Below are positions 4,178 through 23,153 of a stretch of DNA of 32,921 nucleotides, one piece after another. The notes under the pieces were generated by a model. It had not been told where the DNA came from, did no database searches, and was given only the letters and a program-made list of their open reading frames with translations. Both the position numbers and the translations under genes were made by a program. The stretch comes from an uncultured Pseudomonadota bacterium (GTDB taxonomy: Bacteria; Babelota; Babeliae; Babelales; CAIQNR01). Positions within the stretch are counted from its first letter, which is position 1. Each line of letters begins with the position of its first letter. The stretch lies in the NCBI GenBank assembly GCA_964547785.1, contig CAZJPB010000003.1:1-32921 (forward strand), written 5' to 3'.

Positions 4178-5144
4178 CTGTTTTTTCCTTTAAAAAATCC
4201 ATATTATTAACTGTATTTTTATTAAAAAAATGTTTAATAACATACAAAGGCCTATGTTTTATTTCTATATACAGTCGGCCTAAATATTCTCCCATAATAC
4301 CTAATACAAGCAATTGAATGCCTCCCATAAAAAGTATTGCCGCGATTAAAGATGTCCATCCTTGCACACTCAAACTTTGAAAAAAATATCGTATTATAAT
4401 ATATCCAACTAATATAAAACTTAAGGTCATAAACATAAATCCTAAGACTGTAATAAGACGCAAAGGATATTCAGAAAATGAAAATATAGCATTGCAGGCT
4501 AAAGAAAACTGCTTTAAAAAAGAATATTTCGTTGTTCCATATTTACGAATTCCATGCTCAACAGAAACACTCGTATGTTTAAATCCGACCCAACCAATAA
4601 CTCCAACAAGATAACGTTGACTTTCTCTAAGCCGAATTACTTCATCCGCAACTTGTTTCGTCATAATACGAAAAATAGTTGTATTAATTTCTATTTTTTC
4701 ACGCATAAGACTTTTCATAAATGCAATAAATAATGCAGAATAACTGCGCTTTAAAAAATCAAATTTTTTATTAAGACGATCACCGTAAACAACGTCAAAA
4801 CCTTCTACAAGCTTATGATAAAGAAATTTTATATTTTCAGGCTGATCTTGTAAATCACTATCCATCATGACAACATAATCACCAGTTGCATGATCCAGTC
4901 CAGCGCTAATAGCAATATGATGTCCAAAATTTCTACTAAAAATAATAGATTTCACACATTCATTTTGTTCAGAAAGTTTTTTTAATATATAAGCTGATTG
5001 ATCTGTACTTCCATCATCTACAAGAATAATTTCATATAAAAAACAAGAAAAATCTTTTTGCAATACTATCATTAAACGATTATAAAATTCTGGTATTGTT
5101 TCTTCTTCATTATAAATAGGCGCAATAATAGAAATTTTTTTCAT
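4146..5144 (-). CDS. GT2-family polyprenyl-phosphate glycosyltransferase (ArnC/GtrB-like), second copy
   Basis: 332 aa. Motifs are ISIIAPIYNEEETIP, EIILVDDGSTD, FSRNFGHH and MMDSDLQDQPE, plus two C-terminal TM helices (LITVLGFMFMTLSFILVGYIII and LIAAILFMGGIQLLVLGIMGEYLGR). It is clearly paralogous to 552..1553. Confidence 0.9.
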   Translation of the reverse strand: MKKISIIAPIYNEEETIPEFYNRLMIVLQKDFSCFLYEIILVDDGSTDQSAYILKKLSEQNECVKSIIFSRNFGHHIAISAGLDHATGDYVVMMDSDLQDQPENIKFLYHKLVEGFDVVYGDRLNKKFDFLKRSYSALFIAFMKSLMREKIEINTTIFRIMTKQVADEVIRLRESQRYLVGVIGWVGFKHTSVSVEHGIRKYGTTKYSFLKQFSLACNAIFSFSEYPLRLITVLGFMFMTLSFILVGYIIIRYFFQSLSVQGWTSLIAAILFMGGIQLLVLGIMGEYLGRLYIEIKHRPLYVIKHFFNKNTVNNMDFLKEKTDAKYFHNRYI

Positions 5145-7687: not shown

Positions 7688-8302
7688 TTACAAATTGGCA
7701 TGTTTAATAATTTTTTTTACATGTTGTTGCCACGTATAGTGTTCAATAACCTTTCTACGAGCATTATTTCCAAGAAGTATGCGCTGTTCACTCGAAAGAC
7801 TTACACACCATAAACAAGCATCAATAAAACCTTGCATATCTAAAGGATCAACTAACATTCCAACCTGATCTGTAATCTGAATAACATGATCTAATCGAAT
7901 GTCAGAAATTCGAACAGATGGTGATAGCACTTCTGACAATTGTTCTAAATCAGATGCTATAATCGGTTTTGCCATGCTCATATATTCAAATAATTTTGTA
8001 GGAGACCCAAAAAAACGCGAACCATCCACGTTTGGTTGCGTTGGGCACAAAAATGCATCACATTGCGCCAAATATTCAGGAGCCTTTTCTTGCGCAATTT
8101 GTCCTGTCATTACAACAGAGTCAAGAACATTGTGTTGTCGCAGAGCGCATTCTAAATCTTTTTTTAAAACACCATCACCAATAAGCAAAAATCTAATCGC
8201 ACTATTTTGTCGCACCAATGCTGGAATAATTTTTTCTAAAACTTCTATGCCATGCCAATAACCAAATGTTCCAATAAATCCAAAAGTAAAGGTTGATTTC
8301 AT
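7688..8302 (-). CDS. GT4 (glycosyltransferase group 1) C-terminal domain only; apparent 3' half of a split gene (possible pseudogene or independently translated half)
   Basis: 204 aa. It begins at the position equivalent to the GR..KG donor-domain start (FGFIGTFGYWHGIEVL). It continues with LLIGDGVLKKDLE and the EX7E-type region FFGSPTKLFEYMSMAKPIIASDLEQLSEVL. No acceptor (N-terminal) Rossmann domain is present. An in-frame TAA lies 7 codons upstream of the ATG, and AGAGGA lies 9 nt upstream. The matching N-terminal half is at 20499..21128. Confidence 0.75.
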   Translation of the reverse strand: MKSTFTFGFIGTFGYWHGIEVLEKIIPALVRQNSAIRFLLIGDGVLKKDLECALRQHNVLDSVVMTGQIAQEKAPEYLAQCDAFLCPTQPNVDGSRFFGSPTKLFEYMSMAKPIIASDLEQLSEVLSPSVRISDIRLDHVIQITDQVGMLVDPLDMQGFIDACLWCVSLSSEQRILLGNNARRKVIEHYTWQQHVKKIIKHANL

Positions 8303-8348
8303 AAAGAGTATTCCTCTTTTTTATTTCTTGTAAATTGTCTTAAATCTT

Positions 8349-8852
8349 CTAAAGAAATAAATCTTTTTGATTTATTATTGGTTGCGCGCATGGCCACATA
8401 ATATTAAATTGAGGATCATTCCATAATAAATGACCTTCTGTTTTCTGATTATAATATTGTGTACATTTATAACTAATAATTGCCTGATCACTTAAAACAT
8501 AAAATCCATGCGCAAACCCTGGAGACATATAGATTTGTTTATGATTCATACTAGAAAGCTCAATTGTAAAATTTTTTTTAAAGGTTTTTGAATCAGGACG
8601 AATATCAACAACTACGTCAAAAATATGACCGTTTACAACAGACACAAGCTGTCCTTGTCCTTTTTGATAATGTAATCCACGCAATACATTTTTGTGCGAT
8701 AAGGAAATATTATCTTGTACAAATGTTTCTTTAATTCCATAACGCCCATAATCAGATTTTTTCCAACTTTCATAAAAAAAACCTCTTTCATCGTGAAAAA
8801 TTTGTGGCTCAAAAATTAAAAGCCCTTCAAAATCAGTTTTTATTACTTTCAT
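8349..8852 (-). CDS. rfbC: dTDP-4-dehydrorhamnose 3,5-epimerase (RmlC)
   Basis: 167 aa. Motifs are FEPQIFHDERGFFYESW, LRGLHYQ and SPGFAHGF, which are canonical for the RmlC cupin. There is a 4-nt overlap with rmlA. Confidence 0.9.
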   Translation of the reverse strand: MKVIKTDFEGLLIFEPQIFHDERGFFYESWKKSDYGRYGIKETFVQDNISLSHKNVLRGLHYQKGQGQLVSVVNGHIFDVVVDIRPDSKTFKKNFTIELSSMNHKQIYMSPGFAHGFYVLSDQAIISYKCTQYYNQKTEGHLLWNDPQFNIMWPCAQPIINQKDLFL

Positions 8853-9724
8853 TGCTCCATTAATCCAGATAAATAATTTTTATAATAACCTTTTGGTAAA
8901 CGCTCAATAATATTTTCTAAAGGTTTTTTTTGTATATATCCCATGCGCCAAGCAATTTCTTCTGGTGATGAAATAACAATTCCTTGCCGATCCTGCAAAA
9001 CTTGCACATAATTCGATGCTGCAAGCAATGCATGTGATGTTCCAACATCAAACCAAACAGTTCCTCTTCGTAATGACGTAAATGATAATTCCTCTTCTGC
9101 AAGATATGCTTTCAAAAGATCTGTAATTTCCAGTTCATTTCTTTCTGATGGAATAAGTTCTTTAGCTTTTTGACAAACTGATGCATCAAAAAAATAAAGC
9201 CCTGTGATCGCTAAATTAGAAAGATGATATTTTGGTTTTTCTTCTATCAAAATAATTTTATTTTTTTCATTAATTACAACTATTCCATAAGCACTTGGAT
9301 TTTCTACATGATAGGTAAAAATATGAGCTTTTTTTGCATGATGTATAGAATCACATAATAATTCAGAAAGGCCATGCGCATGAAAAAAATTATCTCCTAA
9401 AATCATAGCTACAGATTCATTATTAATAAACTTTTCTCCAAGAATAAATGCTTCTGGTAACCCTTTTGGTTGCATTTGCACTTGATACGAAAACTGCATA
9501 CCAAGTGATCTTCCATCACCAAATAATTTTTCTAAAACGGGCAAATCTTTAGGCGTACTTATAAATAAAATATCCTGAATTCCCGCTAACATAAGTACAG
9601 AAAGAGGATAATAAATTGCAGGTTTATCAAAAATAGGCAACAATTGTTTATTTGTTGCAATAGTTAATGGATAAAGTCGCGATCCCGTTCCTCCCGCTAA
9701 TACTATTCCTTTTTTTATTTTCAT
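8849..9724 (-). CDS. rfbA: Glucose-1-phosphate thymidylyltransferase (RmlA)
   Basis: 291 aa. It has GIVLAGGTGSRLYPLT, KQLLPIFDKPAIYYPLSVLMLAGI, and a C-terminal tail typical of RmlA. Confidence 0.93.
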   Translation of the reverse strand: MKIKKGIVLAGGTGSRLYPLTIATNKQLLPIFDKPAIYYPLSVLMLAGIQDILFISTPKDLPVLEKLFGDGRSLGMQFSYQVQMQPKGLPEAFILGEKFINNESVAMILGDNFFHAHGLSELLCDSIHHAKKAHIFTYHVENPSAYGIVVINEKNKIILIEEKPKYHLSNLAITGLYFFDASVCQKAKELIPSERNELEITDLLKAYLAEEELSFTSLRRGTVWFDVGTSHALLAASNYVQVLQDRQGIVISSPEEIAWRMGYIQKKPLENIIERLPKGYYKNYLSGLMEQ

Positions 9725-9727
9725 GAT

Positions 9728-10762
9728 TTATCCAATTCCTATTCTTTTTCGCGCATTAACGCTCGGAACAAGATTATACGATTTTTTACAATATGATTCG
9801 ATAGTTTTTCTTAACCCTTCTTGAAAATCAATTAAAGACTTCCAACCAGTATGAGCAGTAATTTTTGAACTATTACTCGCATACCTAAAATCATGTCCAG
9901 GACGATCAGTCACAAACGCAATTTGGTCAACATAAGATTTTTTAGCAGGTAAAGGTTGTAATGTATCAAGCATTTTACAAATTACTTTTACTAAAACAAG
10001 ATTAGTTATTTCATTATTAGCTCCAATACAATAAGATTCGCCTATTTTTCCTGATTGCAAAAGTGCATATAATGCACGACAAGTATCTTCAACATAAAGC
10101 CAATCCCTTATTTGTTGACCATTTCCATACAAAGGAAGAGAAAGGCCCTCTAAAGCATTTAAAATAATAAGAGGAATTAGTTTTTCTGGATATTGATTTG
10201 GTCCATAATTATTTGACGGATGCGCAATAATTGTTGGCAATTTATGCGTTTTATTATAAGCCCTTATAAAATGATCTGCACTAGCTTTTGAAGCTGCGTA
10301 AGGAGAATTAGGAAGATACGGTAATTCTTCGTGAAACAATCCAGTTGATCCTAAAGATCCAAAAACTTCATCTGTTGAAAGATGTATAAATTTAAAATAA
10401 TCTTTATTTTTCATACTTTTATAATATAACAATGCTGCTTGGGCTAAAGAATAAGTACCATAAACATTAGTTTTTATAAATTCATCTGCACAATCTATTG
10501 ATCGATCAACATGAGATTCTGCAGCCATATGAACAATACTATCAGGTTGATGCCTAAACATAAGCATCGTCATCATATCTACGTTACAAACATCTTCTTT
10601 ATAAAATATATAATTTTTATCTTTAACATAATCAGATAAATTTTCTATATTTCCTGCATACGTTAATTTATCAATATTGATAACAAAATGACCTTGATCA
10701 AGTAAAAATTTAATAAAATGAGACCCTATAAATCCTGCCCCGCCAGTAACAAAAATTTTCAT
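9728..10762 (-). CDS. rfbB: dTDP-glucose 4,6-dehydratase (RmlB)
   Basis: 344 aa. It has IFVTGGAGFIGSHF, HMAAESHVDRS, STDEVFG and YAASKASADH (YxxxK), and lies next to rmlA and rmlC. Confidence 0.93.
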   Translation of the reverse strand: MKIFVTGGAGFIGSHFIKFLLDQGHFVINIDKLTYAGNIENLSDYVKDKNYIFYKEDVCNVDMMTMLMFRHQPDSIVHMAAESHVDRSIDCADEFIKTNVYGTYSLAQAALLYYKSMKNKDYFKFIHLSTDEVFGSLGSTGLFHEELPYLPNSPYAASKASADHFIRAYNKTHKLPTIIAHPSNNYGPNQYPEKLIPLIILNALEGLSLPLYGNGQQIRDWLYVEDTCRALYALLQSGKIGESYCIGANNEITNLVLVKVICKMLDTLQPLPAKKSYVDQIAFVTDRPGHDFRYASNSSKITAHTGWKSLIDFQEGLRKTIESYCKKSYNLVPSVNARKRIGIG

Positions 10763-10778
10763 ACGATCCTTTTTATTT

Positions 10779-11702
10779 TTAAGTATGACGTAATATTTTT
10801 ATTGTATCATCGATACCTTGCTGTAAAGATCCTGAAAATGCAAATTTTGTTTTTTTAAATTTTTCTGAAGAAATTTCATACGACAATTGATTCATAATTA
10901 CATGATTAACATACTCTATAGTCATTGAATCAATATGTTTTTCTATAGCTGACAAAACTTCTTTAACTGTATGATTTTCTGTAACTATATTATAAATTTC
11001 ACCGTCATAAAGAGATTTTTTTATTACCCAAATAAATGCTTGAATAGCATCATCCAAAAAAAGATAAGGCCGACATTGATGCAAAGCAGTTTCCCAAACA
11101 GTAATTGGTTGCTTCATTACTGCTTGCCAACAAAACTTATTTACTGCCGTATGAAAACGCATTCCTTGAGAAATACCATAAATAGTGCCTAATCTAAAAA
11201 TCACAACTTTTAGTTTTTCTTCTCTATGCATTTTTTGTAAATATGCTTCTTCTTGTAATTTGCATGATGCGTAAGGGCTTTGCGGTTTTAATTCTAAACA
11301 AGCTTCATCAACTACTGTATCTTGTGATCCATACACACTTGTTGATGAAGGAAAAATTAAAGACACATTACTTTTAAGACATGCTTGTGCAATAATTTTT
11401 GTAGATTCAAAATTATTATGAAATAAAAAATCTGACTTACCTACTGTTCCTGCTGCATCAGTTGTTCCTGATAAATGTATAACTACATCAATATTTTTTA
11501 AAATTTCTTGCCAAAAAATTTTTTGTACATCATTTTCAATAAATTCATAGGTTGCTTGTGAAGGTAGATTAAAAAGACTTGAATAACGCTGTGTTGACAA
11601 ATTATCAATCATAACAATATGAGGATTATCAAAAAATAAAGGTAATTTTCGAATCAAAGAAGATCCAATATGACCTAAAGCTCCTGTTATTACACACTTC
11701 AT
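10779..11702 (-). CDS. Extended-SDR NAD-dependent epimerase/4-ketoreductase (specificity unknown; not a canonical RmlD)
   Basis: 307 aa. It has VITGALGHIGSSL, PSSTSVYG and PYASCKLQEE (YxxxK). It lacks the RmlD STDYVF motif. Confidence 0.75.
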   Translation of the reverse strand: MKCVITGALGHIGSSLIRKLPLFFDNPHIVMIDNLSTQRYSSLFNLPSQATYEFIENDVQKIFWQEILKNIDVVIHLSGTTDAAGTVGKSDFLFHNNFESTKIIAQACLKSNVSLIFPSSTSVYGSQDTVVDEACLELKPQSPYASCKLQEEAYLQKMHREEKLKVVIFRLGTIYGISQGMRFHTAVNKFCWQAVMKQPITVWETALHQCRPYLFLDDAIQAFIWVIKKSLYDGEIYNIVTENHTVKEVLSAIEKHIDSMTIEYVNHVIMNQLSYEISSEKFKKTKFAFSGSLQQGIDDTIKILRHT

Positions 11703-12142
11703 AAAACATTCCTAAATTTCAAAAAATCTTGATAATCACGAATATAATCATTTGCATCATAAAATTGATCTGTCAAAATCATCAATGTTGCATTTGCTAT
11801 ATATTCTTGCTCTGCCCATAAAGTAGCTGGTACCAACAATCCTTGTGATGGGCTATTAAGAATAAAAGTTTTTTTTTGCATACCATCATCACACGTCACT
11901 TTAATTATTCCTTGCAAAGCTATCATTAATTGATTACATATTTTATGAGCATGAAATCCTCTAAAACAATCTTCTGTTGCTTGAATCGTAAAAACACGTT
12001 TAATTAAAAAAGGAACAGTATTTTGAGAAGAAAAAATAGAAAGCAATGCTTCTTCTGTTAAAAATTGTTGAAAATTAATAATTTTTATTTGTTCAAGATT
12101 GCAATATTGTATTTTGTTGGGCTTGAAAAAAAATAAATTCAT
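11699..12142 (-). CDS. WxcM-like sugar 3,4-ketoisomerase (FdtA/QdtA family cupin)
   Basis: 147 aa. It has PFLIKRVFTIQ...RGFHAHK...QLMIALQGIIKV...GLLVPATLWAEQ...YDANDYIRDYQDF, the pattern of dTDP-4-keto-6-deoxyglucose 3,4-isomerases. The annotated ATG overlaps the upstream aminotransferase by 50 nt, so the true start may be internal. Confidence 0.8.
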   Translation of the reverse strand: MNLFFFKPNKIQYCNLEQIKIINFQQFLTEEALLSIFSSQNTVPFLIKRVFTIQATEDCFRGFHAHKICNQLMIALQGIIKVTCDDGMQKKTFILNSPSQGLLVPATLWAEQEYIANATLMILTDQFYDANDYIRDYQDFLKFRNVL

Positions 12143-13268
12143 TATTTTTTTTTCCTTTTAAAATGCTTTTTATTGCTTCAGAAATATTTATAATTTGCTC
12201 TTCATTTAACACTAAAGCACAAGGTAAATTAATTGCTCTTTCAGAAATATCATAAGCTATAGGACTATTTTTTCTACCTTGTTCTAAATTTGCTCCAAAA
12301 GCTGGCAATAATGATAATGGATAAAAAAAAGGTCGAGCCGGTAGATTTTTTTTAATTAATTCACTCATCATATATTCTTTAGTCATCTTATGAGATTTTC
12401 CAAATACTAATGCCGTACACCATACACCATTATAAACATTAATTGGTTCAGGATTAAAAAAAACATCAGGAATATCAGTAAATTGTTCTATAAATTTTTT
12501 CCAAATCCAACGTTTTTTTTCAACAAGTTCTTCTATCCTTAAAAATTGTGCATAACCTAATGCTGCTAAAAGATTTGATGGCATATATTTAAAAGTAATT
12601 TCAGTATTAAAATAACTACCTGGCATACGTCCATGATCCCTTAAAAATTTACATCGTTCATAAAGCATAACATCATCTAATAAGAGCATCCCTCCTTCAC
12701 CGGTAGTTATTGTCTTTGTACGATGAAAACTAAAAACAGAACCTACGCCAAATGAACCAGCTCGTTTTTCGTTATATTTTGATCCTAATGATTCTGCAGC
12801 ATCTTCTATTAAGTATATTCCATGCCTATCACAAATTTCTTGCAATAAATCCATATTTGGCATATTTCCATATAGATCAACAACAATAACAGCTTTAGTG
12901 CGAGCAGTAATTTTACTTTCTAATTTTTCAATATTAATACACCAATTTATTGGATCAATATCAACAAAAATTGTTTCTGCTCTTTGATATGTTATAGGAG
13001 CTGCAGTTGCTATCCAAGTACATTCAGGAACAATAACTTGATCTCCATCTTTTATGTCAAGTCCTGCAAGTAATAAATGCAATGCTGTTGTACAATTTGG
13101 CGTCATTAATGCAAAAGATCTACCATGATATTTAGCAAATTCATGCTCAAATGTTTCAACATAAGTATAAGCATTTTTTCCATACCAACCATTACGCAAT
13201 GCATCAAAAACTATTTTTTCCTCAAATTCAGTTATCCATGGACCCGCCATATATATTTCATCGTTCAT
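12093..13268 (-). CDS. DegT-family PLP sugar aminotransferase (perosamine-synthase/VioA-like motif class)
   Basis: 391 aa. It has GWYGKNAYTYVETFEHEFAKY, TTALHLLLAGL, IEDAAESLGS and the PLP lysine in SFHRTKTITTGEGGMLLLDD. Confidence 0.85.
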   Translation of the reverse strand: MNDEIYMAGPWITEFEEKIVFDALRNGWYGKNAYTYVETFEHEFAKYHGRSFALMTPNCTTALHLLLAGLDIKDGDQVIVPECTWIATAAPITYQRAETIFVDIDPINWCINIEKLESKITARTKAVIVVDLYGNMPNMDLLQEICDRHGIYLIEDAAESLGSKYNEKRAGSFGVGSVFSFHRTKTITTGEGGMLLLDDVMLYERCKFLRDHGRMPGSYFNTEITFKYMPSNLLAALGYAQFLRIEELVEKKRWIWKKFIEQFTDIPDVFFNPEPINVYNGVWCTALVFGKSHKMTKEYMMSELIKKNLPARPFFYPLSLLPAFGANLEQGRKNSPIAYDISERAINLPCALVLNEEQIINISEAIKSILKGKKNNEFIFFQAQQNTILQS

Positions 13269-13948
13269 TATACACCTTCCATAAATTGATTATTTTTTAA
13301 AAATTTTGCAGGTGCTCCAATATATACTTGTCCATCAGGAATATTTTTAGTTACAACAGATCCTGCTCCTATAATAGAATTAGATCCTATAGATATTCTT
13401 GGTAAAATTATTGCTCCTGCACCAATCCAAGTGTTTTTTTTAATTGTTACTCTTCCACATAAAATAGCTCCAGGAGCGATTTCTATTCCTTGTTCTAAAA
13501 AATCATGGTGCTCTATAAGACTTTTTGTATTCAAAATACATTGATCACCTATTCTTGCCAGCGAATTAAGAATAACTCCCTTCATAATTTGCACACCATC
13601 ACCAATTATTACATTTGCATCAATCAAAGCTGATGGATCACAAAAAGTAATTGGCGATAATCCTTTTGCCATAAGATAGCTATGTATTTGACATCTTATA
13701 AAACCATAAGGATTACCTATTGCTATGACAAATCCTATGTTTGAAGGATTTTTCCCTATAAGCCATTTTTCAAATGCAACTCTTCCTGCAAGAATTTCAA
13801 TATCAGGAAAAGGCGATTTTAAATTTGGAGTATCATCTACAATAATATTAAAATCCGCACCAAGACTTTGAATAATAGGACGAATTACTATAGACTGATC
13901 TCCTCCACCCCAACATATTAATTCTTTTTTAAAATTATTCAGTTTCAT
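13268..13948 (-). CDS. Left-handed beta-helix (hexapeptide) sugar N-acetyltransferase, NeuD/PglD/PerB-like
   Basis: 226 aa. The N-terminal Rossmann-like domain reads LICWGGGDQSIVIRPIIQSLG. The C-terminal hexapeptide repeats read IEIAPGAILCGRVTIKKNTWIGAGAIILPRISIGSNSIIGAGSVVTKNIPDGQVYIGAPAK. Confidence 0.85.
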   Translation of the reverse strand: MKLNNFKKELICWGGGDQSIVIRPIIQSLGADFNIIVDDTPNLKSPFPDIEILAGRVAFEKWLIGKNPSNIGFVIAIGNPYGFIRCQIHSYLMAKGLSPITFCDPSALIDANVIIGDGVQIMKGVILNSLARIGDQCILNTKSLIEHHDFLEQGIEIAPGAILCGRVTIKKNTWIGAGAIILPRISIGSNSIIGAGSVVTKNIPDGQVYIGAPAKFLKNNQFMEGV

Positions 13949-14679
13949 ATTCTCTTTAAATAACCATTGCGCGTAAAAGAATTAATTGCTTTTTTGTTAT
14001 ATTCATTATCTCTAGAAAAACAAAATCCTTCAGGAGATTGTAAAAAAATATCTACAGCAGTACGTGGATTATTACCATGAGACCATTTTCTAGGCCTATG
14101 CAGCTGTTCTGGAATTTCTTCGATAACAGTATCCGAAATAATAAGATAATTACCTAGTGCAACCAAATTATTATACATATTTAATTCATTAAATACATGC
14201 TCATGAGTATGATTACTATCAAGAATAACCATAATTTTATCAGTAGAAATAATATTTTTTTTAATCTGTTGATACATTAAAAAATCAGTAGAAGAACCTT
14301 CTAAAAGTTCAATTCTATGAGAAAAATGATATTTCATAATTTCATTAATATTTTTTTCAGGTAGCACGGTGTCTATACCTATTACCTTTCCTTTTCCTAA
14401 TAACTCTAAAATTCCTGCGTATAAAATAATACTTCCTCCCCATGCAATTCCTGTTTCTATAATAATATCTGGCTTAGTTTCCCAAATAATCTCTTGAATA
14501 ATAATCATATCTTCAGGCATTTGAATTATTGGTAATCCTAACCAAGTCCAATTATATGCATAATTATGCTCATCAGATTTTGTTATAAATTCTAAAGCTG
14601 TTTTATGCAGTGATTCATCTTTAAAAGCTTTTTCAATATTAATTTGTTTTTGTTTGTTAAATTGTTCCCTATCAAACAT
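13945..14679 (-). CDS. CmcI-family (cephalosporin-hydroxylase-like) SAM-dependent methyltransferase
   Basis: 244 aa. It has WLGLPIIQMPEDMIIIQEIIWETKPDIIIETGIAWGGSIILYA...GKVIGIDT, which I recognise as typical of the CmcI/rhamnosyl O-methyltransferase family. Confidence 0.75.
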   Translation of the reverse strand: MFDREQFNKQKQINIEKAFKDESLHKTALEFITKSDEHNYAYNWTWLGLPIIQMPEDMIIIQEIIWETKPDIIIETGIAWGGSIILYAGILELLGKGKVIGIDTVLPEKNINEIMKYHFSHRIELLEGSSTDFLMYQQIKKNIISTDKIMVILDSNHTHEHVFNELNMYNNLVALGNYLIISDTVIEEIPEQLHRPRKWSHGNNPRTAVDIFLQSPEGFCFSRDNEYNKKAINSFTRNGYLKRI

Positions 14680-14697
14680 TTAATTCTCTTTTTTTTT
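14659..14697 (-). repeat. Copy B of a 37-nt direct repeat spanning a stop/RBS/start junction
   Basis: The minus-strand sequence is AAAAAAAGAGAATTAAATGTTTGATAGGGAACAATTT, with the ATG at 14679-14677. It is 32/37 identical to copy A. Confidence 0.7.
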
Positions 14698-15492
14698 AAA
14701 AATTATATTTATTGATTTTTTTATTTTATGACTTATTGGCAGTAAATCATTCGGCAACTCATTATTAATAAAATATATAGAATCAAAATTAGAAAAATAA
14801 ATAGGCTCAAACCCTAATTCATTTAAAAAATCCATAAATATTATTTTATTGATCATATGCACAGAAATTTTTTTACCATAAAACAATTGATGAGTTACAA
14901 ATGATGGAATATCTCCAATTAACAAATCTCCAAAAATTAAATATTTTGAATTTGTTTTTTTAACTAAAATTTTTAATAAATTTTTCCAATCTTCAATATA
15001 TTGTAAAACACCACCCATAAATAAAATATCAAAATTTTTTGATACCACTGAAAAATCATCATAAAAAGAAAGATTAAAAAAATATTGCAATTCTTCTGGA
15101 ACAGATTTTACCACATTTTTTTCTTCGATTATAGAATAAAAAATATTATTATATTTTGGTATTTTATTTATTAAATCAAGATATTGCAAACCCATTCCTC
15201 CACCAAAATCCAATATCGAAACTTCATTTTTTTCGCTTAAAATTAATGCTGCCATTACATCTAATGGATATTTTGGAGTTACTACAATATTTTCTTTGCT
15301 TGGTTCTTGCATATTTTTTAAAAAATCTAAAACCTTAACTTGTTGTTTAGTAATCCAAATATTTTCATTAAAAACATTTTTATCACCATTTGCTTCTTGA
15401 AAATCTTTAAAAACACCTTTCCACAATCCTTTTGCTTCTTTAATATAATCAACAAAGCTTTGTTTTTGATAAAATTGTTCTTTGTCAAACAT
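14680..15492 (-). CDS. Class I SAM-dependent methyltransferase (O-antigen-locus type, LIC12133-like)
   Basis: 270 aa and very AT-rich. Motif I is [15 protein letters not shown], with a later [15 protein letters not shown]. The N-terminus MFDKEQF duplicates that of the next gene (see repeat features). Confidence 0.65.
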
Positions 15493-15508
15493 GTAATTCT
15501 CCTTTTTT
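15472..15508 (-). repeat. Copy A of a 37-nt direct repeat spanning a stop/RBS/start junction
   Basis: The minus-strand sequence is AAAAAAGGAGAATTACATGTTTGACAAAGAACAATTT, with the ATG at 15492-15490. Both downstream ORFs therefore start MFD(K/R)EQF. Confidence 0.7.
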
Positions 15509-16615
15509 ATATTCTTTTAATAATTCTGGATACAAAGGTAATGTTAAAATTTTTTTTACGATGGCTTCTGTAACAGGAAGGCCTTTTTTTGGAATTTTTA
15601 TGCTTGAAATATATCCTGGATGCATATGAACTGGATATTGATAATGTATACCTGCCTCTACACCATAATCAGCTAATTCTTTTTTTAAATTAACACGATC
15701 TTGAGCTAAAATAACATATAAATGAAAAACATGTTCACTTTCAAAGCGAACCAATGGATGCAATATAGTATTTGATAAAAAATGCTCTTTATAAAATTGA
15801 GCAATAGTTTTTCGTTGTGCATTATCTCTATCTAAATAAGGTAATTTAATTCTTAGTAAAGCAGCTTGTAATTCATCAAGTCGTGAAACAACACCAATTT
15901 CTTGACCTATACGATTTTTATCCCAGCCATATTGACGAATACGCACTAATCGCTCTTTTAATAATAAATCATTTGTTATTATACCTCCTGCATCACCAAT
16001 CGCTCCAAGATTTTTTGTTGGATAAAAACTAAAACAACCTGCATCTCCAAATGTTCCAACTTTTTTTCCTTTATAAAGCGCTCCATGAGCTTGAGCGCAA
16101 TCTTCTATAACTTTAAGATTATAATGCTGTGCTATTTTTAAAATAGGATCCATATCACATGGCTGACCATATAAATGAACTGGTATAATAGCTTTAGTTT
16201 TTTTAGTAATAGCCTCTTCTATTTTGTATGGATCGATAGTAAAATATTCAGGTTCAATATCAACTAAAACAGGTGTTGCTCCTGCTATAATAATAGCCAC
16301 TGCAGTTGCTAATGCTGTATGCGAAACTGTTATAACTTCATCATCTTTTCCTATTCCATAAGATTTTAATGCCAGAGCAAGCGCATCTGTGCCACTACCA
16401 ACACCAATGCAATAAGCACTTTTATGATACTCAGCAAACTCTTTTTCAAATGCTTCAACTTCAGGTCCTAAAATATACGGACCTTGTGTGCATACACGTT
16501 CAAAAGCTTCTAAAATTTCTTTTTTATATGTTTCAAATTGAGCCTGAGGAAAGCTACTGTATAATGTTTTTAGATCATATTGAGAATTTTTACTTCTGGT
16601 ACGAAAGTAATCCAT
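15485..16615 (-). CDS. DegT-family PLP sugar aminotransferase (antibiotic-sugar/QdtB-type motif class)
   Basis: 376 aa. It has [40 protein letters not shown] and the PLP lysine in [23 protein letters not shown]. Confidence 0.88.
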
Positions 16616-17799
16616 TTTCCTCCTTTTTTAATAAATTCTTCCTCTTTTTCAAAAATTTCCTGCGCATGATTCCATGCAAATAAAATTGCATAATCAGGCA
16701 TATCATCTTTAAAATTTTGATAAGTTTTAATTGGAATATGAACTCCTGGACTAAATTTCCCTTGTTTAATTGGCGTTGTATCACTGATGTACTCAATACA
16801 ATCAGATCCTATATTGCAATAATTTAAAACAGTTGTGCTTTTTGATGTTGCAGCATATCCAACAATTCTTTTATTTTGTTTTTTTAAAGTATGAAGTAAG
16901 GCAATAAATTCAGTTTTATTTTTTTCACAAGCATTTTTAAATGCATAAAATGTTTCTAATACATCTAAACCTAATTTTTTTTCTTTTAAAAGTTGTTCAC
17001 TGACAGATTTATTAATTATATGTTGATTTTCAAACCCTAAATAATATCTCATAGAGCCACCATGCGTTACTTGAGGTTCTACATGAAACACTTGTAATCC
17101 ATAAGGTTTAAAAATGTTTATTACAGAAAGAAGACTAAAAATATAAACATGTTCATCATAAATTTGATCGTACGATGTTTTTTGAATCATATCTCCTAAA
17201 TAAGGCTCCTCAAAAACAAAAACTCCTGTTTTTTTAAGAAGATGTATTACGCCTTTTGCTACACTAGCAAGATCAGAAATATGACACATAACATTAGCAG
17301 CAGAAATAATATCAGCCTTGCCATATTGTTTTTCTATTGCTATCGCTAATTCTTCTTGAAAAAAATCAGTTATCGTGTTGATTCCTTTATTGCGCGCAAC
17401 TTGAGCAACATTATCTGATGGCTCAATGCCAAGATGTTTTATATTTTTTTGTGCAAAATGTTGCAACATAATTCCATCATTACTACCTAATTCAACTACA
17501 AAAGATTGTTCTTTATTCAATAAAAATTGATTAAAATAATGATGAGCCATTTGTTCAAAATGTAGAGACATTTTTTTTGAAGAACTAGAAAAAAATGCAT
17601 AATTTTCATGAAACATTAGCTCAGGTTTTGGCTGATCAGCAAGTTGAAATGTTTTACAAAAATCACAAAATAAAGCCATTAAATTAAAAAAATACTCTTT
17701 TTCAAAATTTTGCTTTTCTAAAAAATTATTAGCTATTGGCATCTTACCGAATGATATAATTTCAGTTGCTCGATAATTACATATTCTACAGTTTTTCAT
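16570..17799 (-). CDS. NDP-hexose C-methyltransferase (TylC3/EryBIII/NovU-type: N-terminal Zn-ribbon, class I methyltransferase domain, C-methyltransferase C-terminal domain)
   Basis: 409 aa. It has the N-terminal [23 protein letters not shown]...FCDFC four-Cys zinc ribbon. SAM motif [12 protein letters not shown] follows. A long C-terminal Rossmann-like domain ([17 protein letters not shown]...FAWNHAQEI) completes the pattern. This three-part layout is diagnostic of sugar C3/C5 methyltransferases. Confidence 0.8.
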
Positions 17800-18913
17800 A
17801 ATTTACTTCTTTTTTAAAAAACCATATATCTTCCATACCGTCACGATAACAAACAATATTTGATTCGATAATTAAATGCTCAATAAGCTTAAATTCATTG
17901 TAATAAGGTGTTTTTTTATTAAAAAGAAATTTACCCATTATTAAATTTCGATAAAAACAAATTACTCTTTTCTTTAACTCTTTTATTTTATTAAAAATAA
18001 TTATTGGAAAAATTTTTTTGATAATTATTTTATTAATTTTACTATCGTTTTCAAAAAAGATTACTTCTTTATAACATCTTTGAATAAACCTATTTACAAC
18101 AAATTCTGCATGTATATCAGAATTAATAGTTTCTTGATCAATATTTTCTATATATTTTTTTATACCTTTTTGCATTATTTTTTTATTTGATTCAAACTCA
18201 GAATCAAATAACCATGTTGTATGATATTTTTTTCCTCCAGATTCATTACTCATTTCTCTCCATCCAAATGGTAAATTTAAATATTTACTTTTTCCTTTAA
18301 AAAGAGCAAATATCGTAAATAAATTTTCATAAAATTTTCCATATTTATCAGAACCATAAAAAGCCACGTCATCTAACATAGAAACTAATATGTCTGTTCT
18401 AAAAACAGAAAGTATTGAAGTCATACTTTTTGTTAAAAAAGCATCTATACGTAAAAAAACATCATTATTATCAACTGATTTGGTTGAATGATATATTGCT
18501 GTGTAATACCAATTAATTTTATTATTAAAAAAAGTATAACCATACGTATATCCATGAACAAAAACATAAGATGGATTTTGATCAAGAAAAATTTCAGCTT
18601 TTTTAATTGTTTCTACAGAAAAAAAATCATCTACCGAAGCTAAAAGCGTATATTTTGTATCTACATATTTAATAACTGATGCAATTTTTTCACTAAATGT
18701 TGTTTCGAAAGAATAATCTATAAAAAAAGGATTAAACGAACCATTTTTTGATAAATTAATAATATTTTGTATTTCTTTTTTTGATTCTACGCAGCTTGAA
18801 TCTGCAACTAAAATTTTTCCATTAAAATTTAAAGTTTTATAAAAATCTAAAGCTCTTTTAAGATATTTCTCACTATTTTTTGTTAAAAGAATAATTGTTG
18901 TCATTACATACAT
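17786..18913 (-). CDS. Hypothetical protein with a GT-A/GT2-like N-terminal region (putative glycosyltransferase)
   Basis: 375 aa and extremely AT-rich. The N-terminus TIILLTKNSEKYLKRALDFYKTLNFNGKILVADSS and a later acidic ASVDDFF resemble the GT-A nucleotide-binding beta-strand and DxD. The remainder is unrecognisable to me. The second ATG (18904) has AGGA 9 nt upstream and may be the true start. Confidence 0.4.
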   Translation of the reverse strand: MYVMTTIILLTKNSEKYLKRALDFYKTLNFNGKILVADSSCVESKKEIQNIINLSKNGSFNPFFIDYSFETTFSEKIASVIKYVDTKYTLLASVDDFFSVETIKKAEIFLDQNPSYVFVHGYTYGYTFFNNKINWYYTAIYHSTKSVDNNDVFLRIDAFLTKSMTSILSVFRTDILVSMLDDVAFYGSDKYGKFYENLFTIFALFKGKSKYLNLPFGWREMSNESGGKKYHTTWLFDSEFESNKKIMQKGIKKYIENIDQETINSDIHAEFVVNRFIQRCYKEVIFFENDSKINKIIIKKIFPIIIFNKIKELKKRVICFYRNLIMGKFLFNKKTPYYNEFKLIEHLIIESNIVCYRDGMEDIWFFKKEVNYEKL

Positions 18914-18933
18914 TCCTATTGATTTTTTAAAAA

Positions 18934-19683
18934 CTATTCAATTTCTTGTAAATACAAAGAATAACCATTGTGAACATTACCAATAAAAAGTTGTTTGCCA
19001 TGATTAAGAATAAGTACCTTATTGCAAAGTCGTTTAATAGCTAATACATTATGAGAAACAAATATAATAGTTCTTCCAGCCTTGCTAATTTGATGCATTG
19101 AATCCAAACATTTTTTTTCAAATTCATAATCGCCTACTGCAAGAACTTCATCGATTAATAAAATTTCTGGTTGTAAATGGGCCGCAATTGAATAAGCAAG
19201 TCGTAATCTCATTCCTGATGAATATTTTTTAACCGGTGTTTCTAAAAACTGTTCTACTCCTGCAAAAGCAACAATTTCATCAAATTGTTTAGTAATTTCC
19301 CAACGCTTCATACCTAAAATAATACCGCTTAAATAAATGTTTTCTCGTCCACTAAGTTCCGCATGAAAACCAGTGCCAACTTCTAGCATGCTTGCAACAC
19401 GGCCACGAATAATTGCTTTGCCACTGGTAGGAGCGACTATTTTACTTAAAATTTTTAAAAGTGTACTTTTTCCAGAACCATTTTTACCGATAATTCCTAA
19501 AACTTCCCCTTCTTCTACGTCAAACGAAATATCATCAAGTGCTTTAAAAGCAGTTTTTTGTACAGATGGTTTAAAAAATGATGTTGCTTGCGAAAGCAAA
19601 AGCTCACGAAAACTCATTTCTGATTCTTTGTAGGCCTCGACAAAATAGGTTTTTGAAAGATTTTGTACTTCTATTCTTTTCAT
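18934..19683 (-). CDS. wzt: Polysaccharide ABC exporter ATP-binding protein (Wzt/TagH-type, nucleotide-binding domain only)
   Basis: 249 aa. It has Walker A GKNGSGKST, signature YSSGMRLRLAYS, Walker B LLIDEVLAVGD and H-loop VSHN. It also has the N-terminal SFRELL...FKALDDISF pattern typical of Wzt/KpsT/TagH. No C-terminal carbohydrate-binding extension is present. Confidence 0.9.
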   Translation of the reverse strand: MKRIEVQNLSKTYFVEAYKESEMSFRELLLSQATSFFKPSVQKTAFKALDDISFDVEEGEVLGIIGKNGSGKSTLLKILSKIVAPTSGKAIIRGRVASMLEVGTGFHAELSGRENIYLSGIILGMKRWEITKQFDEIVAFAGVEQFLETPVKKYSSGMRLRLAYSIAAHLQPEILLIDEVLAVGDYEFEKKCLDSMHQISKAGRTIIFVSHNVLAIKRLCNKVLILNHGKQLFIGNVHNGYSLYLQEIE

Positions 19684-19690
19684 AGGTTAC

Positions 19691-20506
19691 TCAAATAAGA
19701 TCCGCAAATGTTTCTTCTGATTTTTTAAAATATAAAATACTGATTATTCCTAGTAGTAAAGTCATTGCTAATGAAATTCCTATCACAGGCCAATACAATG
19801 TTTCTGCTAATAAACAATAACGAAAACCATTAATAATGCCCGTTAAAGGATTTAAAGCAATAATAAAATGTAAATTTTTTGGAATCATTGCAAGACTAAA
19901 TCCAACGGGAGTTATATAAATTCCAAGCTGCACAACAAAAGGAACAATGTGCCTAAAGTCACGATATTGCACAATAAGAGATGCAAACAAAAGACTTATA
20001 GAAAAAGAAAAGACCGCTAACCATGCCATAAAAAGTGGCAATAATACAATATTTACTAACGGCACAATACCGTAACGAAAAAAAGACAGCGCTGTGTAAA
20101 ATAAAAAAGCTATTGAAAAATCAACAAGACTACACAAAATACGACTAGCAGGAAGCATGATCCGAGGAAAATATACTTTAGAAATAAGTTGAACATTATT
20201 AACAAAGCTCATGCTTGCATAGGTAAACGTATCGGCAAAAAATTGCCACACCAACATTGCAGAAAATATTACTAAAGGATAAGGCGCTTGAGTGCTTGGA
20301 ATATGCGCAATACGACTAAAAATAATCGTAAAAATAATCACGGTGAGCAAAGGACGAATGATGACCCACAGTATGCCAATACTTGTCTGTTTGTATTGGA
20401 CCAAGATATCTCGCCAACCTAAAAATAAAAGTACATCTTTGTAATCAAAAAACTCTTGAAAAAATGATTTCCAAGTTTTATGAGAAGTAATAATTGTTTC
20501 ATTCAT
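19691..20506 (-). CDS. wzm: ABC-2 type polysaccharide exporter permease (Wzm/TagG-type)
   Basis: It has the typical WRDILVQYKQTSIGILWVIIRPLL motif and six hydrophobic helices. I prefer the start MNETIITSHK (ATG 20506, 271 aa). The track's longer ORF (to 20551) would add a 15-aa leader lying inside the GT4 fragment. Confidence 0.88.
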   Translation of the reverse strand: MNETIITSHKTWKSFFQEFFDYKDVLLFLGWRDILVQYKQTSIGILWVIIRPLLTVIIFTIIFSRIAHIPSTQAPYPLVIFSAMLVWQFFADTFTYASMSFVNNVQLISKVYFPRIMLPASRILCSLVDFSIAFLFYTALSFFRYGIVPLVNIVLLPLFMAWLAVFSFSISLLFASLIVQYRDFRHIVPFVVQLGIYITPVGFSLAMIPKNLHFIIALNPLTGIINGFRYCLLAETLYWPVIGISLAMTLLLGIISILYFKKSEETFADLI

Positions 20507-21128
20507 AATAATAACTTTTTTGTATGCTTTCAGGATTAAAAACAAGAACATTTACACCATTTGGATTGACCAAAATTTTATCTTCTCTTGTTCCTTTCAC
20601 AACAAGTTCATCTTTTAAAACTTGCGACACAACTACAATATAATCAGCATATTTTGTATTAATTTTTTCAATTACATACAAAAACCATACACCTTGCATA
20701 TATTTTTTATTTTTAATCCAACGTGATGCAATCCATGCTTCTGATCCATTGTATTCAAGAATGAATTTTTTGTTATACCACCACGCGAGCAAAAGACCTG
20801 TCATATTCAACAAACTGTAACGCTGATAGATCGCTGCTAGAGAATACTCTTTGCATAAACTGCGCGCCTGAAAGAAAAAGAAAAACGTTGAAAAAAAAGA
20901 ATTTAATTTCCAACGTAAAGGCTTGAGCCATGCAGGATTTGCAAGTTTTATTACTTTTTCTAGCGGTACTTGTTTCAGCACTGAATCCAGGCAAGAAGAA
21001 GCACAGACTATCGAAAAACCTTCATCACAAAACCCTTGCATAACGCCTAAAGTATGCGCAACGGATCCTCCTGCTGTAAGCTCTTGATCAGCAATATCAG
21101 TACGCAAATAGAGAATTACTTTTTTCAT
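20499..21128 (-). CDS. GT4 glycosyltransferase N-terminal (acceptor) domain only; apparent 5' half of a split gene
   Basis: I prefer the start MKKVILYL (ATG 21128-21126), which forms an ATGA overlap with the asnB-like stop. LTAGGSVAHTLGVMQGFCDEGFSIVCAS is the classic GT4 N-domain opening. The ORF ends ...ILVNPNGVNVLVFNP ESIQKSYYYE*, just after the inter-domain NGVD..F.P motif. No donor domain is present. The stop overlaps the wzm start by 8 nt. Confidence 0.75.
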   Translation of the reverse strand: MKKVILYLRTDIADQELTAGGSVAHTLGVMQGFCDEGFSIVCASSCLDSVLKQVPLEKVIKLANPAWLKPLRWKLNSFFSTFFFFFQARSLCKEYSLAAIYQRYSLLNMTGLLLAWWYNKKFILEYNGSEAWIASRWIKNKKYMQGVWFLYVIEKINTKYADYIVVVSQVLKDELVVKGTREDKILVNPNGVNVLVFNPESIQKSYYYE

Positions 21129-23080
21129 CCAAGCACTCCGGTTTGAATAACATTTTGTAAAGCCCATAATTGCGTTGTATAATTACGCGATGCTGATTGG
21201 GTATGACGCAATATTGATTCAACCTCTTTTTTTTCAAATAACTGTTCAAGCGAATCTTTTTTAGTTGCTAAAAGATCAAGAAAATATTCTTTAAAATAGA
21301 CGCCTTCTTTAAACCAACGAGTCGTTGGAGCGGAAAATCCAATTTTTTTTCTATAAATAATATCATCTGGCAAAATGCCTTCACAAGCTTTTTTAAGAAT
21401 ATATTTTGTGACACCATGCTTGTATTTAAGGCTACTTGACACTTGAAAAGCAAATTCAACATGAGCATGATCCAAAAAAGGAACACGCCCTTCAACCGAT
21501 GTAGCCATCGTCATTTTATCAACACGCATCAATAAAAGCTCTGGAAGGCGTTGCTTGAATTCTAAATATATCATCGATTGTAAAAAATCAGCTTCAGGCT
21601 TTTTTTCGTATAATTTTTTTAGATGATATTCGACAATTGCATAACTATCAGCTTGCTGGCGCATTCCTGGATATATTTTTTCAATAAAAGGATCATACGC
21701 ATGATCATCACAAGAGACCAACAAATCTCGCTTCGCTTTTTCTGAAAATGCAATCGCGCCAGTCCAAAACATATGTTGATTGCCAGCCCACTGATGCAAA
21801 AAGGATAAATATTGTTTTTTTGCAGGAAACATTTTTGCAGCGAGCCATACGCCAGCTTTTTTAACTGTTTGCGGCAAAAACTGTGTTGGCTGGTAATAAC
21901 GATTATAGGCATTTATATACTGCGCATAACTTTGATATCCGCAATAGAGTTCATCCGAGCCTTCTCCAACTTGCACAACCGTGACACCCTGCTCTTTTAA
22001 TAATTTAGAAACATAATAAAGCGGAATGCAGACAGGATCGGCAAGTGGCTCATCTTGGTGATAAACCATCTTCTGGAAAAAATCAAAAGCATCTTTTTCT
22101 GAAATCACTAATTCATGATGATTAGTATTGAATAATTTTGAAACCTTTTTTGCCCACAAACTTTCGCTATATTCAGGACCATCAGAAAAAGAAATATTAA
22201 ATGTTTGCACGTTATCGGTATATCGTGACATTAATGCTGTGATTAAACTCGAATCAATGCCGCCAGACAGAAAGACTCCGTAAGGAACGTCAGAAATAAG
22301 TCGCTTTTCTACGGCTGCAGTTAATAATTCTTGAATCTTTGATATACAAAAAGACTCATTTGCAAGATCTTTTTGTGCGTAAGTGATAGCAGGAACTAAA
22401 GGATTATACCATTCATGAAATGTTAATTCTTTTTTGCTATCGATTTTTACGTACATTCCTGCAGGTAGTTTATAGACACCTTTATATAATGTGTAAGGAG
22501 CCGGTGTTACTAAAAAAGTTAAGTAATGATACAAAGCTTGATGATTCACCGTTTTCTGCATCCAGGGCAGTTGCCATAACGCTTTTATTTCTGAACCAAA
22601 ACTTAAATAATCATCATTTACCGCAAAATACAACGGCTTAACACCAATGCGATCACGAACAAAGAACCATTCATTCGTTAAAAAATTTCCAAGGACTGCC
22701 GCAAACATACCTTCTAATCTATCAAGGCACGCAATACCCCATTCTTTAAATGCGCACAAAAAGACTTCTGTATCTGATTGCGTTTTAAAATGATGACCAC
22801 GAACCTCAAGTTCAGTACGTAATTTTTTATAATTATAAATTTCACCATTAAACGTAATGACCACTGTTTTATTTGCATCAAACATCGGCTGCATCGCATT
22901 ATCAGAAAGATCAATAATACTTAAACGTTGGAAAACTAGTGCGATTTTTTGTTGATTGTCGATCCATACTTTTTGTCCATCAGGACCGCGATGATTAATG
23001 CAAGATCCCATAGATCGCAAAAGATGTTCATCACTCAAAAATTGATCTTTTAAAGCTATGTATCCAGCAAAACCGCACAT
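21125..23080 (-). CDS. asnB: Asparagine synthase (glutamine-hydrolysing)-family amidotransferase, glycan-locus paralogue (WbpS-like)
   Basis: 651 aa. It has the N-terminal nucleophile MCGFAGY, the GATase-2 domain (RGPDGQ, FNGEIYN) and the synthetase PP-loop VFLSGGIDSS. Its position in a glycan locus suggests uronic-acid amidation rather than housekeeping Asn synthesis. Confidence 0.88.
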   Translation of the reverse strand: MCGFAGYIALKDQFLSDEHLLRSMGSCINHRGPDGQKVWIDNQQKIALVFQRLSIIDLSDNAMQPMFDANKTVVITFNGEIYNYKKLRTELEVRGHHFKTQSDTEVFLCAFKEWGIACLDRLEGMFAAVLGNFLTNEWFFVRDRIGVKPLYFAVNDDYLSFGSEIKALWQLPWMQKTVNHQALYHYLTFLVTPAPYTLYKGVYKLPAGMYVKIDSKKELTFHEWYNPLVPAITYAQKDLANESFCISKIQELLTAAVEKRLISDVPYGVFLSGGIDSSLITALMSRYTDNVQTFNISFSDGPEYSESLWAKKVSKLFNTNHHELVISEKDAFDFFQKMVYHQDEPLADPVCIPLYYVSKLLKEQGVTVVQVGEGSDELYCGYQSYAQYINAYNRYYQPTQFLPQTVKKAGVWLAAKMFPAKKQYLSFLHQWAGNQHMFWTGAIAFSEKAKRDLLVSCDDHAYDPFIEKIYPGMRQQADSYAIVEYHLKKLYEKKPEADFLQSMIYLEFKQRLPELLLMRVDKMTMATSVEGRVPFLDHAHVEFAFQVSSSLKYKHGVTKYILKKACEGILPDDIIYRKKIGFSAPTTRWFKEGVYFKEYFLDLLATKKDSLEQLFEKKEVESILRHTQSASRNYTTQLWALQNVIQTGVLG

Positions 23081-23153
23081 TATGAATATCCTTTTTTAGC
23101 ATCATTACTTTCCTTAGATCTATACCGTTTATAAAATTTGTACAGATTTATAT

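Follow-up and report, generated by a model that had tools for sequence, protein, structure and literature searches.

Two separate genes for the N- and C-terminal domains of a GT4 glycosyltransferase in Babeliales glycan loci: a candidate natural split enzyme

Introduction

Naturally split glycosyltransferases of the GT-B fold are known in eukaryotes as Alg14/Alg13, and in bacteria and archaea as EpsE/EpsF, that is, Cps14F/Cps14G (PMC8993221). In these enzymes the domain on the acceptor and membrane side and the domain on the nucleotide-sugar side are two polypeptides that have to associate; the split is ancient and inherited by clades, and fused relatives exist (PMC8993221). Here we analyzed a 32,921-nucleotide stretch of DNA (the window: contig CAZJPB010000003.1 of assembly GCA_964547785.1, GTDB lineage Babelota; Babeliae; Babelales; from a Candidatus Babeliales (Dependentiae/TM6) genome), in which the N-terminal and C-terminal domains of a GT4 glycosyltransferase are encoded by two separate open reading frames (ORFs), the N-half and the C-half, with exporter and sugar genes lying between them. 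An earlier note on this DNA had proposed that a glycan cassette had been inserted into one GT4 gene.

The window halves resemble Alg14/Alg13 and EpsE/EpsF in that the two sides of the enzyme are separate, seen here at the level of genes, and in that the split is ancient, inherited by a clade and accompanied by fused relatives. However, the known pairs are MurG-like (GT28/GT1 lineage), whereas the window halves match, among Pfam and NCBIfam models, only those of GT4 and have only GT4 structural neighbours. The known genes are normally adjacent, whereas window-type halves lie 2.3-14 kb apart with an exporter and a sugar cassette between them. Unlike Alg14/Alg13, the halves are placed in different transcription units in at least one relative (locus L170), and those of the window are probably derived from two paralogues. 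The best reading of the sequences, a structural model and the analogy is that the window pair would work like Alg14/Alg13 but belongs to another family.

Three further comparisons are useful. Heterodimeric GT-B enzymes have been engineered by a "mix and match" of domains (Bretagne et al., J Biol Chem 2024, PMC10937113). The mechanism is the same as the one proposed below for the window, but those enzymes are laboratory constructs made from GT1-type natural-product glycosyltransferases, whereas the window pair would be a natural GT4 combination fixed by evolution. The intact asnB-linked GT4s (best NCBIfam model TIGR04063 "stp3", with a TIGR03108 amidotransferase) belong to the same family and share the neighbourhood of asnB and a fusion gene of the ADH and GFO families; they are 33-51% identical to the window halves across both domains and have the motifs GGSxxHT, NPNGV, FGFIGTF and FFGSPTKLFEYM in common with them, but they are single polypeptides of about 380-430 residues, whereas the window has two ORFs. 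Glycan loci that depend on an ATP-binding cassette (ABC) transporter, including those for O-antigen, carry the same standard wzm/wzt export set and deoxythymidine diphosphate (dTDP)-sugar genes (rmlABC, FdtA, DegT, C-methyltransferase); they are flanked by whole housekeeping or pathway genes, whereas the window cassette is flanked by glycosyltransferase halves. In a library of open-access papers we found no description of a natural split GT4, nor of a glycan cassette bracketed by glycosyltransferase halves.

Results and Discussion

The two half genes

The N-half (20499..21128, minus strand) encodes 209 residues and is a stand-alone N-terminal, acceptor-side Rossmann domain of GT4 by the ORF listing and Pfam, matching Glyco_transf_4 (PF13439) over profile positions 2-167 of 170 (E 2.3e-9; 37.9 bits against a cut-off of 28.5). 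The C-half (7688..8302, minus strand) encodes 204 residues and is, by the same evidence, a stand-alone C-terminal, nucleotide-sugar donor domain; it matches Glyco_trans_1_4 (PF13692) over positions 3-139 of 142 (E 2e-20, 73.8 bits) and Glycos_transf_1 (PF00534; E 2e-15, 57.5 bits), both above the cut-off. These results bear out the domain assignments of the earlier note, which had also described the halves as complementary and in N-to-C order on one strand. They are 12.2 kb apart in that order and strand, with 14 genes between them, and a profile hidden Markov model (HMM) scan for this GT4 family matched no other ORFs in the window.

The complementarity of the halves was clear from NCBIfam TIGR04063, of which the N-half covers positions 150-198 and the C-half 215-334, with no overlap. 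The scores of 22.8 and 54.7 bits are far below the model cut-off of 442 bits, and the halves therefore lie outside that equivalog. When aligned to full-length relatives, the halves miss only about 15 residues, corresponding to the inter-domain linker helix: N-half tails run for 10-25 non-conserved residues past NPNGV, and C-halves start about 5 residues ahead of the FGFIGTF strand. Tails of this kind are too short for intein blocks, and we rejected an intein or trans-splicing for this reason.

The N-half starts with ATGA, sharing 4 nucleotides with the stop of the asnB-like gene, to which it is predicted to be translationally coupled. An alternative ATG at 21167 would give 222 residues; we placed the start at 21128 because homologues and the ATGA overlap favour it. 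The protein ends in ...NPNGVNVLVFNPESIQKSYYYE before the stop codon, 10 residues past FNP, and its stop overlaps the start of wzm (ATGAATGA). The C-half begins with MKSTFTFGFIGTFGYWHG, carries the internal motif FFGSPTKLFEYMSMAKPIIAS and has its own ribosome-binding site, AGAGGA, 9 nucleotides 5' of the ATG. A promoter and terminator scan around the C-half gave no signal above the shuffled expectation. Within the C-half motif FGSPTKLFEYM, the glutamate E106 was invariant in 29 homologues.

A sequence search of the PDB returned no match for the N-half and only weak matches for the C-half. When the halves were joined end to end, AlphaFold predicted a complete GT-B fold with a predicted local distance difference test (pLDDT) of 91.2 and a predicted template-modelling score (pTM) of 0.90, poorly defined only at the artificial junction. 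Foldseek matched the joined model to MshA, BshA, GlgM, PimB', HepE and PglA with E values of 1e-15 to 1e-19, and the model superposed across both domains on solved retaining GT4 enzymes with target-normalised TM scores of 0.75-0.83. The model shows the pair to be structurally complete as a GT-B enzyme, which does not by itself prove assembly in trans.

We also asked whether the junctions are real. Independent contigs from public runs span 7619-8762 (0 differences), 7460-8394 and 20009-20534 (0 differences); they come from wastewater and freshwater metagenomes of several studies, all of them DNA metagenomes at 3-6x depth. Both junctions are covered in this way with no alternative joints seen among these contigs, and misassembly, which the earlier note had wished to see checked, is therefore excluded. 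Searches at the junctions for direct or inverted repeats and att-like sites returned AT-rich chance matches only, ruling out an excisable element or target-site duplication, and Pfam showed no integrase, insertion sequence (IS) element or recombinase domain among the window ORFs, in agreement with what the earlier note had seen in the sequence.

Conservation of the split and selection on the halves

The two halves were next compared with other genomes. In the N-half search about 62 of 73 matches were stand-alone proteins of 200-230 residues with 47-68% identity, and in the C-half search the best 45 or so matches were stand-alone proteins of 200-222 residues with 50-67% identity; several N-half and C-half homologue pairs share a contig. 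Fused and split states were called by a reference-genome scan followed by scripted classification. Separate N-half and C-half genes were present in at least eight related loci of Candidatus Babeliales (Dependentiae), at distances of 2.3-14 kb: 14.0 kb in JGI 3300056705 and in GCA_040384165.1, 10.9 kb in ERZ3460577 and in GCA_964604015.1 (L170), and 2.3 kb in L089, where the entire interval consists of wzm-wzt-methyltransferase. Every stand-alone C-half locus for which the upstream region was available also carries an N-half. The split loci form one clade with 100% bootstrap in the AsnB tree. Each of the 46 loci retrieved from other phyla (Desulfoscipio, Cohnella, Methanobacterium, Chlamydiota and Nitrospinaceae among them) carries a fused single gene, and the other Babeliales/Dependentiae (L009, L020-L038) have a fused GT4 directly after asnB. 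A metagenome scan with a C-half profile returned mostly distant fused genes, L089 being the only new split locus. These data indicate that the split is a fixed, vertically inherited architecture of one subclade of the Babeliales, which are parasites of protists.

The simplest reading of the earlier note, a 12.2-kb cassette inserted into one ancestral GT4 gene, did not survive this comparison, since at least eight related loci keep two separate genes, an arrangement that the note itself had named as counting against insertion. Its ancestral unit asnB-GT4-SDR (SDR, short-chain dehydrogenase/reductase) held in part: an intact asnB-GT4 exists in L009 and L020-L038 and in other phyla, but the SDR is not conserved in the fused loci; in L009, for example, a fusion of Wzx and a glycosyltransferase follows the GT4.

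The interval between the halves varies. L169 retains the gene order of the window cassette at about 60% protein identity, the content differs in L001/L006, L010/L088 and L170, and the sugar-modification set is absent in L089; some relatives carry a sulfatase and extra methyltransferases and others inverted segments. In L170 a segment of about 5.6 kb at 4280-9892 runs in the opposite orientation to the flanking genes; it holds DegT, rmlC, a methyltransferase, a sulfatase and two unknowns. This suggests that the interval is prone to rearrangement. The genes right upstream of the C-half in L170 lie on the opposite strand, and the halves there are therefore in separate transcription units.

Selection was estimated from the ratio of non-synonymous to synonymous divergence (dN/dS) between L001/L006 and L004/L008, where dS is 0.6-1.1 and unsaturated. 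The ratio was 0.125 for the N-half and 0.081 for the C-half, and in the same pair 0.047 for asnB, 0.056 for rmlB and 0.119 for the downstream SDR. The orphan N-half of sister lineages, described below, gave 0.22, equal to the full-length GT4b found there. These values indicate that both halves are maintained genes under purifying selection. Between the window and L001/L006 the halves are 60% and 67% identical, the cassette genes 60-67% and the flanking genes 70-73%. The cassette (60-67%, against 60-73% for the flanking genes overall) is thus about as diverged as its flanks, suggesting that the split is ancient and that the cassette has grown in place. A recently acquired mobile cassette or genomic island was rejected on the same divergence and on the lack of a recombinase or junction repeats. 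We also rejected frequent horizontal swapping of cassettes between the halves, because the distribution of cassette types mostly matches the AsnB tree and cassette and flanks have diverged together.

Origin of the halves

Sister lineages (L014, L015, L016, L024 and L040) carry the N-half, wzm-wzt, one or two methyltransferases and then a full-length GT4 of about 428 residues with its own N-domain. In fused-type Babeliales a second GT4 is also present, often behind a Wzx-like extension of about 490 residues. We call the asnB-linked type GT4a and the Wzx-fused type GT4b. In domain trees the stand-alone N-halves form a clade (83-97% bootstrap) amid asnB-linked N-domains, and the N-domains of the full-length downstream GT4s form a separate clade (89-96%). 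Paralogue-specific HMMs gave the same answer: stand-alone N-halves scored +25 to +49 bits towards the GT4a type (the window N-half +39), and N-domains of the full-length downstream GT4s -11 to -51 bits, towards the GT4b type. Stand-alone C-halves clustered with the C-domains of the full-length downstream GT4s (50-75%), and the N-half and C-domain trees had a congruent branching order. The identity of the window C-half is 57% with the C-domains of the sister full-length GT4b and 59% with other stand-alone C-halves, falling to 48% with the C-domain of either paralogue from fused-type loci. For the window N-half the values are 56% with stand-alone N-halves and only 42% with the N-domains of the sister full-length GT4b.

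The orthologue of the C-half in sister lineages therefore lies in a complete enzyme with a different N-domain, which speaks against a cut of one gene as the earlier note had imagined it. The halves probably stem from two paralogues, each of which lost one domain. The ancestral Babeliales loci would have had the order asnB - GT4a - (Wzx-fused) GT4b. A wzm-wzt(-methyltransferase) module may have taken the place of the GT4a C-domain and of the Wzx part in the split-clade ancestor, so that an orphan N-domain stood beside a full-length GT4b. In the lineage of the window GT4b would later have lost its N-domain, leaving a mix-and-match pair of N(a) and C(b), and dTDP-sugar genes may then have accumulated between the halves. 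Relics of a lost N-domain 5' of stand-alone C-halves and of a lost C-domain 3' of N-halves were looked for, and none were found.

Several observations were made on the paralogues of the fused-type loci. Flippase-glycosyltransferase fusions of 835-930 residues, consisting of the N-terminal extension of about 490 residues and a complete GT4, lie at 12065-14785 in L021, 11375-13972 in L023, 9440-12232 in L025, 11252-13984 in L026, 15751-18540 (minus) in L028, 5661-8405 in L035 and 11262-13781 in L009; in L009 the extension matches Pfam Polysacc_synt, a Wzx-like flippase. Near its C-terminus, at 11050-11240, the 378-residue fused GT4 of L009 is apparently frameshifted, with the last 60 or so residues of the C-domain in another frame, pointing to a sequencing error or a recent lesion. 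L031 (same as L092) carries three tandem full-length GT4 paralogues at 9920-11248, 13320-14621 and 16361-17650. The C-domains of the first and third, unlike their N-domains, cluster at 100% bootstrap, a pattern that suggests gene conversion between the paralogues or a shuffling of their domains.

Function of the halves and rival explanations

The reading that we favour, with a probability of about 0.6, is that a GT4 enzyme of the GT-B fold is encoded as two separate functional genes whose products associate into one enzyme. The earlier note had offered as its alternative a split enzyme like Alg13/Alg14 with both halves expressed, and this now appears to be the best-supported reading. The N-half and C-half would associate non-covalently into one GT-B enzyme, the N-half supplying the acceptor and membrane side and the C-half the nucleotide-sugar site, including the invariant glutamate of FGSPTKLFEYM.

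Several points count against this proposal. Expression of both halves, and the binding of one to the other, are predictions made from the genes. The AlphaFold input was a covalent join of the halves, with an alignment containing split and fused homologues, and a GT-B outcome was partly expected by construction. The first glutamate of the classical GT4 EX7E motif, eight residues before E106, is phenylalanine here. Sister lineages conserve the N-half with no stand-alone C-half within the 20 kb examined, suggesting that it serves, or used to serve, a function that needs no free C-half; this weakens the idea of an obligate pair. A truncated glycosyltransferase N-domain alone altered exopolysaccharide chain length in Streptococcus thermophilus (PMC7023835), which is a loose precedent for such a role. 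The order of the domain-loss events is moderately supported: L024 is basal at only 56-58% bootstrap, the minimal locus L089 is poorly placed, and the trees were built by neighbour-joining, and not by maximum likelihood, from about 200-640 columns. The loci with stand-alone C-halves are monophyletic at 100% on AsnB and at 50% on the concatenate. Paralogue-specific HMMs for the C-domain do not discriminate between C(a) and C(b).

We tentatively propose, as one possible course of events, that GT4a contributed the N-domain and GT4b the C-domain of a working GT4 enzyme whose parts come together in trans. The orphan N-domain would first have served another purpose, such as coupling the step of the amidotransferase and glycosyltransferase to export by Wzm/Wzt, and would later have allowed the loss of the GT4b N-domain, after which the interval became the site of cassette growth and remodelling. 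It is doubtful that the halves are instead N(a) and C(a), products of an ancient cut of one asnB-linked GT4 in its linker by a wzm-wzt-methyltransferase module, with the sister full-length GT4 arising later by fusion of a foreign N-domain to the C-half and the cassette then growing to 11-14 kb. L089 does show a minimal form of 2.3 kb whose N-half tail and C-half head span the whole linker, and the start of wzm falls at or within the tail of the N-half in the window, L013, L014, L015, L017 and L018, as expected from landing in the linker. The C-domain HMMs and the weakly supported basal position of L024 leave room for such a cut, and re-fusions are documented in the Alg13/14 family (PMC8993221). 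But such a history calls for an N(b)-type domain from elsewhere, joined precisely and in frame at the linker, and this twice if the full-length-GT4b lineages are paraphyletic, as the AsnB and domain trees suggest. A separate loss of the ancestral Wzx-GT4b gene is needed as well. Moreover, the N-domains of the full-length GT4b, which score as the Wzx-fused type, represent an old and separate lineage, and retention of GT4b fits this better.

The halves could also both be functional without forming one enzyme, the N-half acting as, for example, an acceptor-binding or scaffold partner of AsnB, of the Wzm/Wzt exporter or of another glycosyltransferase, and the C-half having another partner or only binding nucleotide sugar. 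In line with this, the N-half is under purifying selection (dN/dS 0.22) where GT4b is complete and no stand-alone C-half is nearby, it is always coupled to asnB with wzm-wzt always close behind, and the chain-length effect in S. thermophilus (PMC7023835) came from an N-domain alone. We nevertheless consider it unlikely: a GT-B C-domain by itself has no acceptor site, the N-half is the only homologous N-domain that the HMM scan found in the 32.9 kb, the stand-alone C-half loci with an upstream region available all have an N-half, and the joined halves model as a well-packed GT-B fold. It is very improbable that the halves are inactive pseudogene relics, that the assembly created them, or that programmed excision of the cassette restores an intact gene. 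Each ORF is cut off exactly at the linker relative to fused homologues, and annotation pipelines could flag such ORFs as partial. However, dN/dS is 0.08-0.13, at least eight divergent genomes keep the ORFs intact with 45-68% identity, both junctions are spanned by independent contigs with no alternative joints, neither junction repeats nor a recombinase gene are present, and essential pathway genes lie inside the cassette. The low dN/dS, the intact ORFs across the clade and the confirmed junctions effectively refute it.

The architecture and its conservation are solid, and the assembly of the halves and the evolutionary order are our interpretation of them. If the two-gene enzyme is real, it would be a natural two-subunit enzyme in GT4, one of the largest glycosyltransferase families, and halves that are not adjacent and probably come from different paralogues would bear on the modularity of GT-B domains that enzyme engineers pursue. 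The conserved orphan N-domain protein has a testable function. For annotators, "partial glycosyltransferase" ORFs of about 200 residues in Dependentiae are real genes and not pseudogenes. The loci also point to a change in how the surface glycan is exported, with a Wzx-linked locus giving way to one linked to an ABC transporter, among obligate parasites whose cell envelope has hardly been studied.

The cassette and surrounding genes

All window genes described here lie on the minus strand. Immediately 5' of the N-half is the asnB-like glutamine-dependent amidotransferase gene (21125..23080; 651 residues; Pfam Asn_synthase and GATase_7, NCBIfam TIGR01536 and TIGR03108). It immediately precedes the GT4 in all Babeliales loci examined, and most other phyla have the same neighbourhood. 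Further upstream, a conserved block at 23154..27846 encodes, by Pfam, an ADH_zinc_N + GFO/IDH/MocA fusion, a wecC-like uridine diphosphate (UDP)-sugar dehydrogenase and a wecB-like UDP-N-acetylglucosamine 2-epimerase; the order wecB-wecC-ADH/GFO-asnB-N-half is constant across all split loci. The fusion protein (723 residues, 23154-25325) adjoins the asnB-like gene and this GT4 family, and the same neighbourhood occurs in Babeliales, Desulfoscipio, Cohnella, Methanobacterium, Nitrospinaceae and many other phyla (L042-L087). This appears to be a sugar-modification module that is widespread and, it seems, uncharacterised.

Downstream of the N-half are wzm (19691..20506; Pfam ABC2_membrane) and wzt (18934..19683; Pfam ABC_tran), the latter encoding 249 residues with a nucleotide-binding domain only. 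In all split loci wzm-wzt comes right after the N-half or one to three genes later. The Wzt proteins of the window and of L089 (256 residues) have no C-terminal carbohydrate-binding domain, and Wzt is 419-425 residues long in L001, L004, L010, L015, L016 and L024, with a weak Wzt_C match in L010. Short and long Wzt suggest that the mode of export coupling varies within the split clade.

Between wzt and the C-half, twelve sugar-modification genes occupy 8349..18913 (Pfam). From wzt on they are the 375-residue ORF, C-methyltransferase, DegT, a weak methyltransferase of 270 residues, CmcI methyltransferase, hexapeptide acetyltransferase, a second DegT, FdtA ketoisomerase, SDR, rmlB, rmlA and rmlC. 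Pfam confirmed the functions that the earlier note had listed for the 14 genes, with two reservations: the "GT-A-like" 375-residue ORF (17786..18913) had no Pfam match, and the 270-residue ORF (14680..15492) is only weakly methyltransferase-like (E 0.005). The former is the sole candidate for an extra glycosyltransferase inside the cassette. As a standard set of its kind, the cassette is predicted to make modified dTDP-6-deoxy-amino and C-methyl sugars that are exported by Wzm/Wzt. Its GC content is 22-32%, against 33-38% in the flanks, and two pockets of 22-25% at 14000-15500 and 17500-19000 coincide with the 270- and 375-residue ORFs, respectively.

The earlier note had counted three intergenic gaps in the locus, two of them flanking the C-half. 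This was roughly right: gaps of 46 and 58 nucleotides do lie on either side of the C-half, but there is also a gap of 73 nucleotides at 23081..23153 and others of 16-20 nucleotides.

Several metagenome-assembled genomes titled "Alteromonas naphthalenivorans" or "uncultured Pseudomonadota" (L012, L041 (JBLICC01...), L015, L017, L018, L023, L024 and others) have Babeliales-like gene content and AsnB phylogeny, and their taxonomic labels are probably wrong.

On the 3' side of the C-half the window carries an SDR/4,6-dehydratase-like gene (6535..7629; Pfam and NCBIfam), a gene for a multi-pass membrane protein of 465 residues (5141..6538) with no Pfam match, and a GT2 gene (4146..5144; Pfam and NCBIfam). 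Most relatives likewise have an SDR and a GT2 after the C-half. The membrane protein has weak homologues in L016 and L041 (27-28% identity) and may be ligase-, polymerase- or glycosyltransferase-C-like.

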